64,000 nucleotides of DNA from a virus (Duplodnaviria > Heunggongvirae > Uroviricota > Caudoviricetes). Of this stretch, positions 13,201 through 16,200 are shown in pieces (the first letter of the stretch is position 1; each line of letters starts with the position of its first letter). Location of the stretch: IMG/VR virus record IMGVR_UViG_2684622670_000009, positions 1-64,000 of that record; one strand, given 5' to 3'. Made by a program: the position numbers.

Positions 13201-16200
13201 TGTTTTGGATAATTCTTTCTTTTCTAGAGAAATTATTTCTCCCATAGGAATAGACTGGTTATTAATACCATTGATATATTGTGGGGTAACTTTCGATACT
13301 GTCATTTCACCTTCGTCACCTGATTTTAACTTGTATTTTATTAGGTCTCCAGAATATATCTGTGGCTCGGTTAAATAATAAGTACTTCTTTCAAGATTTT
13401 TTTGCTTTATGTTAACTCCTTGATAAGAATGACATCCACATAACACAAGTGACAAAATTAACGTTGTCAGTAATTTTCTTTTGTTTTTTATCATTGCCAG
13501 TACTCCTTCTCTTTTTTTTATAGCTAAAACACATCATTCATTCCTGTCAAATAGTTTTGAGTTTGAGAGTGAGGGTTACGTGACGACGTTCTAAAAGTTG
13601 ACAGATAGCGGCAAAGACAATTTCATTTACAATATGTTACCTTTTCCTGTAAGTATACCTTGAGATAATTTTCTTTCCCCCATTAGTTGAGTGGCATGAA
13701 TGATATTAATAAATGACATTAGTTGTGATGATTTCTGATTCACATTTATCTCTCCAGCCATTGCCCTGATGTAATCGGCACTTGCCACGTTGTTATATTC
13801 TGTTGCGAAGCAGCATAACAACGTCAGAACATGCTCTGTCGTTATTTCGCTCCAGTTGATGTTGAAAAACTCATCACCTTTTTTGTCGTGTTCGGAATCG
13901 AAGATGCTTTGGTGGAGGATGTATTTGCCGGATTCCTTGCGCGGTAACTTGATCGCTTTCTGGCGTTCCAGCTCCTTGTAAATCTGCATTGCTTCAATCA
14001 GTACCGGCCTGCCGTTCATGAAGGGATCGCGCAATCTTACACGCTGGCCAACTCGACCAGTAATAAAGCTGTTTTCCTCTTCCACCAGCACGATAAAACC
14101 CTTTTCCTCTTTTTCTCTCAATTCGCGCAGCAGCTGGAGTTCCATGTCGCGGCGGCGTTCAGGGTAGCTGGTCCGCTCAGCCATTATCAGCTCGTTGTTG
14201 ATCCATGCAGCAGTCATTGACGCCGGTTTGCCGACGTTCATCGAAACAACGCATATTTTCTTATCCATAGCGCCCCTACAAAAAAGAAAAGCCACCAGCG
14301 GGGCTTAGCAATACAACTGAAGGTAGCGCCCGGTACTCAGACTGTGCCGTCCATGGAATATTTGAAAAGGGATCCATCCGTACCGGGCGTGTGATGATTC
14401 TGACTCAGGTCACTTGTCAGTTGTCAATCATTTAAGATTAAAAATAATATATTTATTAGTGCATGATGTTTGCCATTTCATAGGCGTCAGCCAGCAACTC
14501 CATCTCTGACTTGTTCAACAAGGTGAATTCTTTCTTTCCTCCAACCACACCATCGGCATGAACAGGGACCAGCCAGGGGTATTTTGCTCTTACTTCAGCC
14601 GGTGCTGCATGCTGGTGGTGCCATCTACAAAGTGGCAATTGCTTTTTATGACAACCCGGCGCGGTACGACCGGAGATATGGTGCAGAGACACCTCTTCAG
14701 ATATTACTCCATGCATATAGCAAGCAATGCAGGGGAGGGCGCCAAGAGTATTGGCGATACGGCGGTCGATAGTATCTCGCATTTTCTGATATTGAGATTC
14801 TCGCCAGACCGGATCAGCCAACTTCTCCCGTTGCCGAGCGATCGCTCGTTCTCTGGCTGCCTTCTGCCACTTACGGTGCTGTTCAATTTTTTGTTCGATT
14901 GTTTTCATATGGTCAAAAAAAAGGCGGCCTAATGGCCGCCTATGATGTCAAGGAGTGAAGTAATGGCAACGTCTTCGTAGTTGACTAACGCCACGGCTTA
15001 ATTATAGAAATAAATTAGAGCAATGTCAGCCGTTTTATTTATCGCGAATCACATTTTTTCTCTTCAGTACCTGTGTGCTATACTCCTTCTTGATTGATTG
15101 GATGCGGAATACAAACCTGCTCTTTTGTGCAGCCTGGCTCCTTGCCAGGCTTTTTTTTATTTCATCATGGAAGCTGTTAATGCTTTGGACCTTGCTGAAC
15201 TGATTGAGAGGGCTTTGTCAACGTGCCCAAAAAATTCGCCAAACTCAGACATCACTTTGGCAAAACCGCGCCGCGCTTCTTCCTCGGTGGCATTCATCAC
15301 GAAATGTTCAGCACTACGCATACTTTTGACAGGGAACGCAACAGATATTGAGTCAATATCAGGCATTCTATCGCTCAACTTTACAGTGACAATGACGGCT
15401 GGCGACTGAATATTAGTGCTTACAGACAGCACTACATATTTTCCGTCGATGTTGAAATCCTTTCTCATATGCCACCATAAATACCAAGCAATTAGAGCAA
15501 TTTCCTATACATTGACGGCTAATCACCATCTTCCAGCAGGCGCACCATTGCCCCCGTTTCACTATCCAGATTACGGATATAGTTCATGACAATATTTACG
15601 TTTGTCCAGCCACCAGCCTGCATGATCTCAGGTATTGAAACTCCGGCGCGGGCCATATCTCGTGCGGCTCCAACACGGGCACTGTGTCCAGACCAGGCTA
15701 GGTATCTCTGACCAGAGTCATCTTTTGCCCCGTAAATCAATCGGTGAGTTGCTTCAAAAATCCCTTCCAGGGCGCGAGTTGATAGCTGGCTGGTGGATGA
15801 TGGCGCGGCAACACCATTTTTTCTGACCCGGCAAAACAGGTAGTTATTCGGATCATCAGCGACACCAGAGACAGAAATCCATCGCTCGACCAGTTTAGTT
15901 ACCCCCAGGCTAAGTGCCTTCTCTACACCTGCGGTGCTAACCAGCGTTTTCGTTCTGCCAATATGGATTAACATTCTCCCACCGTCAGTACGCGAGATAT
16001 CTTTAACCCTGATCCTGGCAATTTCGGCTATACGTAACAGAGTGTTATAAGCAATCCCCAGAAATGCCAGATTACGTATATCCTGGCAGCGATCGCTATT
16101 TTCCATGAGTGAGCGAACCTGGTCGAAATCAGTGCGTTCGAACGCCAGCGCCTGTTTTGCACGTTCACCGGCATCAACGTTTTCTTTTCGGATCCGCCGC

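Follow-up and report, generated by a model that had tools for sequence, protein, structure and literature searches.

A conserved terminator-like hairpin lies between the C1-controlled promoter and the ref gene of P1-like phage-plasmids

Promoter-proximal intrinsic terminators in bacterial 5' leaders are known to cause premature termination or constitutive attenuation, and short RNAs derived from the 5' untranslated region (5'-UTR) are seen there by 3'-end mapping. Phages employ the same kind of element. Examples include the lambda PR'-6S RNA-tR' unit, which works with Q, and other phage early terminators that are read through by N or Q. The leader of Escherichia coli rnd, the gene of RNase D, contains a stem-loop and then eight U residues before the start codon, and according to work of Zhang and Deutscher from 1989 it reportedly serves translation, not termination. 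Here we describe the leader of ref, the gene of a RecA-dependent HNH nuclease, in a viral DNA stretch of 64,000 nucleotides (nt) (IMG/VR record IMGVR_UViG_2684622670_000009, positions 1 to 64,000), hereafter the window. The window is a P1-like phage-plasmid, and over 14300-15600 it shares 94-96% identity with phages P1 and P7 and with further P1-like phage-plasmids. Ref is known to damage the host, to inhibit lysogeny and to sensitise lysogens to ciprofloxacin, and in P1 the gene is controlled by C1 and its 5' regulatory region is bound by H-NS (Ronayne et al., 2016, PMC4713147).

Between a C1-type operator-promoter and the ref start codon, the minus strand of the window carries a GC-rich hairpin that directly abuts a run of eight T. 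With a confidence a little above even, we read this hairpin as a constitutive Rho-independent terminator that would insulate ref, truncate most transcripts of the C1-controlled promoter and leave a low level of Ref from read-through. The upstream half of the unit is already known and annotated as Oref/P2ref, and control by a promoter-proximal terminator has precedents. The anatomy of the element, its conservation and its covariation are direct observations. Its features, from upstream to downstream, are:

15038..15044, minus strand: CGATAAA, matching the H-NS nucleation motif described for the 5' regulatory region of P1 ref
15024..15029, minus strand: -35 hexamer CTGACA of the promoter that the operator overlaps (P2ref in the P1 record), nearer to consensus than the CTATCA of P1
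15008..15024, minus strand: C1 operator ATTGCTCTAATTTATTT (Oref, formerly Op2a, in P1), with two mismatches to the C1 consensus
15001..15006, minus strand: -10 hexamer TATAAT, unchanged in 68/68 ref-carrying loci
14909..14994, minus strand: predicted 5' leader of about 86 nt, its start site placed from the -10 position, about 7 nt after TATAAT
14971..14985, minus strand: leader block GTCAACTACGAAGAC, identical in 19/21 aligned P1-lineage leader variants
14942..14969, minus strand: P1ref, a second predicted sigma-70 promoter, TTGCCA-16-CATCAT with an upstream TG, 9/12 matches, 'predicted' in AF234172
14947..14955, minus strand: CTCCTTGAC block, resembling an anti-Shine-Dalgarno sequence
14923..14940, minus strand: terminator hairpin GGCGGCC-ATTA-GGCCGCC, seven G-C pairs and a tetraloop
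14915..14922, minus strand: T8 tract, the U-tract of the terminator, directly abutting the stem
14909..14914, minus strand: spacer GACCAT between T-tract and ATG, with no Shine-Dalgarno sequence; GCCAT in P1 and P7
14906..14908, minus strand: ref ATG, which the P1 and P7 records also annotate as the ref start

An earlier note on this DNA had described a C1 operator beside a TATAAT box, a hairpin with T8 directly before GACCAT-ATG and a start codon lacking a conventional Shine-Dalgarno sequence, and all of these are found where it had placed them. The leader length of 86 nt that it gave is less firm: a leader is present between promoter and ATG, and its exact length rests on the predicted start site. 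If leader transcripts terminate at the hairpin, the predicted product is an RNA of about 80 nt that ends in the T-tract.

The window contains 17 operator-like sites where 0.27 would be expected. The ref site is a 17-bp asymmetric sequence of the ATTGCTCTAATAAATTT type that overlaps a promoter and spans its -35 to -10 spacer, and it is a predicted C1 operator. The homologous sites in the P1 and P7 records are annotated C1 operators, and the same promoter (P2ref) and the same ref ATG are annotated there. With CTGACA-17 nt-TATAAT (15029..15001, minus strand), the promoter matches the consensus at 11/12 positions and outscores every other promoter-like site in a scan of 3.2 kb. The other 16 operator-like sites in the window all lack a comparable terminator in the 260 nt that follow them. 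At 34032-34097 a weak hairpin with T6 (ACGTGATGTACACTCATCACG, -9.0 kcal/mol) lies between two operator-like sites that face each other, and this pair is the only other operator in the window near a terminator-like element.

The arms of the ref hairpin are GGCGGCC (14940..14934) and GGCCGCC (14929..14923) on the minus strand, separated by the ATTA loop. An extra A-U pair in the window lengthens the stem to eight pairs (14941/14922). The hairpin has an energy of -15.2 kcal/mol alone and -16.7 kcal/mol with the extra pair. It ranks third among the 67 hairpins that abut a T-tract on both strands of the 64 kb, and just 3/67 both reach -14 kcal/mol and have 7 or more T. A loose terminator scan is by itself not enriched (6 found vs 3.5 +/- 1.9 expected). 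The ref element has the anatomy of an intrinsic terminator: a GC-rich stem with a short loop, an abutting uninterrupted U-tract on the transcribed strand only, and pairing that is kept in relatives. Read on the opposite strand, the stem runs into TATGATG instead of a U-tract, and the T-run lies on the same side in all lineages. Its length is T7-T10 in ref-carrying loci, T6 in loci that lack ref, and T7-T8 or T5ATT in other clades. A DNA palindrome acting as a protein site was considered and rejected: the stems differ between clades, the T-run stays one-sided and the loops are RNA-type tetraloops (UUCG, UACG, GAAA, GCAA).

Conservation within the P1 lineage was assessed on 80 IMG/VR loci fetched through c8, together with P1, P7 and four plasmids; 68 of the loci carry ref. 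Nucleotide diversity (pi) was computed over 52 distinct ref-carrying sequences:

Hairpin stems: pi 0.0027
Hairpin loop: pi 0.064
Rest of leader: pi 0.036
c8 third codon positions: pi 0.149
ref third codon positions: pi 0.090

The loop occurs in five variants (ATTA, ATCA, GAAA, TAAA and GCAA), two of which, GAAA and GCAA, are GNRA loops. Only two stem changes are found among 21 aligned leader variants, and both keep a wobble pair. Judged from these alignments, selection acts on the pairing of the hairpin, not on its sequence. The conservation of the leader as a whole is not specific, because the entire c8-ref spacer is conserved (pi 0.029); the 127-nt part from c8 to the promoter, likewise at pi 0.029, is more conserved than the c8 coding sequence. 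Transposon traces occur in the region. A Tn3-family inverted repeat (GGGGTCGTTTGCGGGAGGGGGCGGAATCC...) breaks the leader of IMG/VR locus L015 just upstream of the expected hairpin position, and in P7 a Tn3 sits in ref, at its 3' end.

The same architecture is found beyond the P1 lineage. Ref proteins of 51-56% identity are encoded on contigs of phage-plasmid size (~90 kb) from Klebsiella aerogenes, Salmonella and Pantoea, and additional members of the Salmonella-type clade were recovered from IMG/VR. These loci have in common a C1-type operator over the -10, a short leader, a GC hairpin, a T-run and then ref. Their operators (ATTGCTCTAATA..., ATTGTTCTAAT... or TTTGCTCTAATAAATTT) overlap a TATAAT or TATTAT -10, and their upstream genes differ from c8. 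The hairpin is GACGGTC-TTCG-GACCGTC in Salmonella and the IMG/VR members, the same stem with a TACG loop in K. aerogenes, and GCCGCC-TCCG-GGCGGC in Pantoea, with energies of -12 to -14 kcal/mol. In an alignment of 12 hairpin variants, 97.6% of cells are paired and 3/7 pairs change on both sides. The observed covariation score is reached by 0/500 shuffles, and the pairing collapses when one partner is slid along the other. We take this covariation as supporting evidence, not as proof, because the 12-variant alignment is small and hand-assembled.

Ref genes that have no C1-type operator have no leader terminator, and they show ordinary ribosome-binding sites or a position inside operons instead. 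Examples include ref behind an ERF recombinase gene in chromosomal prophages, a form of 192 amino acids (aa) in E. coli with an AAGAGG Shine-Dalgarno sequence, and Buttiauxella, Leclercia-type and Vibrio loci. A GTDB genome scan returned only chromosomal-prophage and other Ref loci, all lacking the architecture. Because the terminator is absent both from the other 16 operators and from operator-less ref genes, it goes specifically with C1-controlled ref.

From the sequence we infer how such an element would work, including termination itself, its efficiency, the insulation of ref and the mode of translation initiation. The hairpin is the first terminator-like site after cre and c8, so it should end read-through from these genes; transcription arriving from cre-c8 would stop there and ref would be shielded in the lysogen. 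Because the C1-controlled promoter is upstream of it as well, most transcripts made once C1 is inactivated should be cut short there, as a leader RNA of about 80 nt. Ref would be made only from the fraction that reads through, to which a weak P1ref that starts inside the stem may add in the P1 lineage. The read-through mRNA would initiate at an AUG with no Shine-Dalgarno sequence, 13-14 nt after the stem, with ribosomal protein S1 probably contacting the U-tract. Overall, a host-damaging nuclease would be kept low, on top of repression by C1 and H-NS.

We read the hairpin as constitutive because no sensor is detectable in the leader. RNAalifold finds the terminal hairpin alone conserved in the 21 leader variants, and a 5' stem has no compensatory support. 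An Rfam scan of 14700-15300 on both strands gave no family at threshold (best 24-25 bits vs gathering scores of 41-55), hence no riboswitch or other Rfam cis-regulatory family in the leader; a protein-binding site is possible. The sub-threshold matches are terminator-driven, and all are to small RNAs (sRNAs) that bear terminators. Two candidate devices were rejected. A leader peptide would need a 21-codon GTG frame that ends with TAG in the hairpin loop; P1 has GCA for the GTG, there is no Shine-Dalgarno sequence and the frame is not conserved. An antiterminator could form if a 5' GCCGC paired with the left arm of the hairpin, but the window and L012 differ in this pairing, which is thus not conserved, and an alternative helix does not emerge from RNAalifold. 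With neither a conserved alternative structure nor a leader peptide, any regulation would come from a constitutive attenuator or a factor acting in trans, and not from a classical attenuator.

Several points weigh against a constitutive terminator of this kind. On C1 inactivation ref mRNA is induced 73-fold (PMC4713147). In a published P1vir infection table, ref reaches a log2 fold change of 8.3 at 10 min, beside 8.5 for kilA and 7.5 for ssb. P1ref could bypass the hairpin, possibly as a minor route. If insulation is the sole aim, it is odd to set a promoter in front of a strong terminator; the module is kept in 56 plasmids without ref, and the leader blocks TGTCAAC and CTCC(Y)TGAC that are shared between clades are left unexplained by simple attenuation. 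At 30 min the same infection table gives 10.0 for ref vs 12.8 for kilA and 11.7 for ssb, which we count in favour of a terminator that limits ref. The table is at gene level and shows that the body of ref is transcribed. Since ref mRNA is clearly made, a tight block is excluded, and polymerase either leaks through the hairpin or avoids it. Ronayne et al. (2016) use neither the word 'terminator' nor the word 'hairpin', and the silence of the P1 GenBank record on a ref terminator is uninformative, because no terminators are annotated in the ~21 kb inspected, even by strong hairpins.

The timing of expression also bears on a different reading, in which the hairpin is a timing switch: a phage or host antitermination factor would recognise the conserved leader blocks, and ref would be turned on once the factor accumulates. 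A promoter followed by a strong terminator and a short terminated RNA is indeed the layout of Q-type systems, and the leader sequence blocks are conserved across clades. No antiterminator is known in P1, and besides the terminator the leader has no conserved RNA structure. By quantitative PCR, ref peaked slightly later than ssb, dmt and kilA (PMC4713147), but at 10 min of infection its transcripts are already at levels like those of other early genes. We regard such a switch as quite improbable.

The genes upstream of the leader offer another explanation of the hairpin. The minus-strand genes are cre, c8, ref and a mat-like open reading frame (ORF), and their order is that of the P1 record AF234172:

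15519-16550, minus strand: cre, upstream of c8
15157-15468, minus strand: c8, between cre and the ref leader
15157..16550, minus strand: cre and c8 together, whose transcripts reach no terminator-like site before the leader hairpin
14456..14908, minus strand: ref, RecA-dependent HNH nuclease, 150 aa in the window; PF16786 in homologues

It is conceivable that the hairpin is merely the cre-c8 terminator and the boundary of a mosaic module, that ref is expressed from P1ref and that the hairpin has no bearing on ref control. The minus strand between cre and the hairpin has no other terminator-like site, and AF234172 lists P1ref as a predicted promoter; the -10 of P1ref ends 1 nt before the hairpin, next to the stem, and its predicted start lies inside the 5' arm. 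Transcripts that begin there would therefore be unable to form the hairpin and would escape termination. The homology breakpoints of plasmids that lack ref also fall at the T-tract. Against this, the sole operator overlaps the upstream promoter, and ref is C1-controlled and 73-fold inducible, so that induced transcripts most likely cross the hairpin; P1ref has no operator and is thus unable to explain C1 control. In the P1 lineage the -35 of P1ref is not constant, and the other clades lack the promoter, whereas the order of operator, promoter and terminator is conserved in all clades despite different upstream genes. A hairpin irrelevant to ref is therefore highly improbable to us.

The plasmids without ref deserve a closer look. 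The module of operator, promoter, leader and hairpin is kept while ref is absent in 56 of ~706 P1-like PLSDB plasmids and in at least 12 IMG/VR loci, among them L003 (1440-1760), L004, L012 and L047. In these loci homology ends at the T-tract (T6), with which the mosaic breakpoints coincide, and the stop codon of a convergent icd-ant operon (KilAC antirepressor) follows 2-3 nt later. The -10 is altered in 3/8 distinct ref-less variants vs intact in 68/68 ref-carrying loci, which fits a promoter that serves ref through the hairpin. In L004, which lacks ref, a 13-nt deletion took most of the operator and the -10, and a stem mismatch is also present. As the first terminator after cre-c8 and an element that persists in ref-less plasmids, the hairpin is not solely a ref device. 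The earlier note had proposed a second layer of ref control beyond C1; comparative data support the idea in part, as a terminator-type hairpin is conserved between the C1 promoter and ref in three lineages, but the hairpin does not belong to ref alone.

A module that stands alone in this way could be a gene in its own right. The promoter, leader and terminator might form a C1-repressed sRNA gene (~55-85 nt) with a function of its own, in trans or by protein binding, and read-through into ref would be secondary; as a corollary, the locus would encode a dual-function 5'-UTR-derived sRNA. The architecture resembles that of an sRNA, in which a dedicated promoter is followed by a 5' part that is conserved and unpaired and by a terminator ending in many U, and in four lineages promoter and terminator delimit a predicted transcript of 53-85 nt. 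The leader (pi 0.036) is less diverse than third codon positions, and the weak Rfam matches are those to terminator-bearing sRNAs. TGTCAAC, part of the GTCAACTACGAAGAC block, is found again in 3/4 Salmonella-clade leaders, and the anti-Shine-Dalgarno-like CTCC(Y)TGAC stands just 5' of the hairpin in Salmonella and Klebsiella loci as well, so both are common to clades whose Ref proteins are only ~55% identical. The one-base variants of the block among all those listed are GCCAAC in L013, ACTAATAAAT in L006 and GAACAC in L010.

Some findings count against such an RNA. Conserved leader blocks exist, but no complementary target stands out in the window, which covers about two thirds of the phage genome. 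The best duplex in the 64-kb window, at -36.4 kcal/mol, lies within the range of shuffled leaders (-34.5 +/- 2.3), and BLAST-short finds no exact complement longer than 12 nt in the window. A 12-nt match at 61012-61023, inside a 575-aa ORF, was considered as a trans target and taken as chance. No Rfam family reaches threshold, and the conservation of the whole c8-ref spacer makes that of the leader unspecific. The apparent decay of some ref-less copies, seen in the altered -10 sequences and in L004, suggests that constraint is relaxed once ref is gone. We consider an sRNA gene unlikely. A broader version seems to us rather unlikely, namely a conserved regulatory RNA unit of P1-like phage-plasmids that is made up of the C1-repressed promoter, the leader and the terminator (an induction sRNA or an antitermination platform) and has ref as one cargo. 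A stand-alone C1-controlled small RNA and a platform for an antitermination factor, when combined, are doubtful, at well under an even chance; ref-less persistence and clade-shared leader blocks are to be expected of either, and for this reason we keep them in view beside constitutive attenuation.

The leader also contains one copy of TAGTCAAC, which matches an iteron-like repeat of the window. We treat this as a coincidence, since P1 has TTTGTCAAC and the TAG part is not conserved. The repeat itself occurs 9 times in the whole window vs 1.35 expected, and eight copies cluster at 54663-57132 (54.6-57.2 kb). The clustered copies stand mostly within TCGCG(T/C)(A/G)TAGTCAAC, on both strands, around a 306-aa ORF, and they resemble replicon iterons. 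They appear unlike the RepA iterons of P1.

The start region of ref suggests yet another function for the hairpin. Inspection of the sequence finds no purine-rich Shine-Dalgarno within 20 nt before the ref ATG, and the region is devoid of one across the P1 lineage. The spacer between T-tract and ATG differs in length by 1 nt between the window and P1, therefore this segment is non-coding and the ATG is the start. On read-through mRNA the T8 would be a U-rich stretch at the usual Shine-Dalgarno position. The element could thus be a device for translation or stability like the E. coli rnd leader, one that terminates little in vivo, whose U-tract recruits the 30S subunit through S1 and whose hairpin protects the mRNA. 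For a start without a Shine-Dalgarno sequence after U8, the rnd leader would be the closest precedent. In the P1 lineage the U-tract stands exactly at the Shine-Dalgarno position, 5-6 nt from the AUG, and induction yields abundant ref mRNA. A/U-rich tracts are enhancers of initiation that need no Shine-Dalgarno sequence, and the article on such enhancers cites the rnd work of Zhang and Deutscher (1989) (PMC3592434). Other clades argue for a terminator instead. The Pantoea hairpin lies ~100 nt before the called start, and in the Salmonella clade GGGA or GGAG stands between the T-tract and the start; AUG proximity and the absence of a Shine-Dalgarno sequence are not conserved, while the terminator is. 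The element is also kept where no gene follows, and seven G-C pairs with U8 are expected to terminate efficiently on biophysical grounds. A role in translation or stability in place of termination is distinctly unlikely in our view, and we retain a leaky, constitutive terminator as the favoured explanation.

The genes around the leader show further features. In the window Ref has 150 aa vs 186 aa in P1 by alignment. An in-frame deletion of 36 aa removed its basic linker and with it SRGLKGRTPTAEER, a motif that hardly varies in the family. A 150-aa Ref protein identical to that of the window is on record for Escherichia albertii, so the short Ref is a circulating variant and not an assembly error. 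Just past the ref stop codon, at 14421-14450 on the plus strand, a promoter-like TTGTCA-16-AATAAT (10/12) is aimed antisense into ref. An antisense ref transcript of ~720 nt is conceivable from there, as the next plus-strand terminator is at 15131-15159. That site, GCCTGGC-TCCTT-GCCAGGC with T8 (-14.2 kcal/mol), is a second strong terminator in the opposite orientation and lies directly after the c8 stop codon. An extended -10, TGCTATACT, stands at 15076-15084 on the plus strand, ~55 nt upstream of this terminator, and the pair predicts a plus-strand RNA of ~68 nt. Between cre and c8, an operator-like ATTGCTCTAATTGCTTG (15485-15501, minus strand) lies in the predicted c8 promoter and is 1 nt off the proven Oref of P1. 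P1 and P7 carry ATTGCTATAAT, their -10, at this site, and E. albertii L003 has the operator-like form. Going by this site, c8 may be under C1 control in the lineage of the window.

The setting of the Ref dose matters for P1 biology and for phage-antibiotic synergy. C1 and H-NS are the documented layers of repression, and a leader terminator and a weak start would be the third and fourth. Such extra layers would explain how a near-consensus promoter is able to drive a toxic gene. In practical terms, the cloning of ref or of P1-derived promoter fragments with 'native' upstream DNA would bring the terminator along. If the leader RNA has a role of its own, P1, a model phage for 70 years, would gain a second regulatory RNA besides c4.

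Compared with bacterial leader terminators, the ref leader has the same GC-rich hairpin and U-tract between promoter and first gene, and it likewise predicts a short leader RNA and reduced downstream expression. It differs in that termination is here a prediction, no sensor is detected and the known input is a repressor at the promoter. The ref leader does not qualify as a classical attenuator, as it has neither a conserved alternative structure nor a leader peptide or detectable sensor. With E. coli rnd it shares a terminator-like stem-loop and U8 immediately before a poorly equipped start, where the U-tract is a plausible S1-dependent enhancer of translation; unlike rnd, the ref element persists at a distance from the start in Pantoea and in plasmids that lack ref, and the two have no sequence relationship. 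As at lambda PR'-tR', a phage promoter is followed by a strong terminator within ~50-200 nt, so that a short RNA would be the default and downstream genes would need read-through. No nut, qut or put-like element is detectable in the ref leader, its promoter is repressor-controlled and not constitutive, and a single gene lies downstream in place of a late operon; the ref leader would work like PR'-tR' only if an antiterminator exists, and none is known. Also comparable are the C1-controlled units of P1 itself (Op2a/Oref, Op72 and Op53; AF234172). The upstream half of the ref unit is the known Oref/P2ref, with a 17-bp asymmetric operator over the promoter spacer. What sets it apart is the hairpin: among the 17 operator-like sites of the window only that of ref precedes a strong terminator before its gene.

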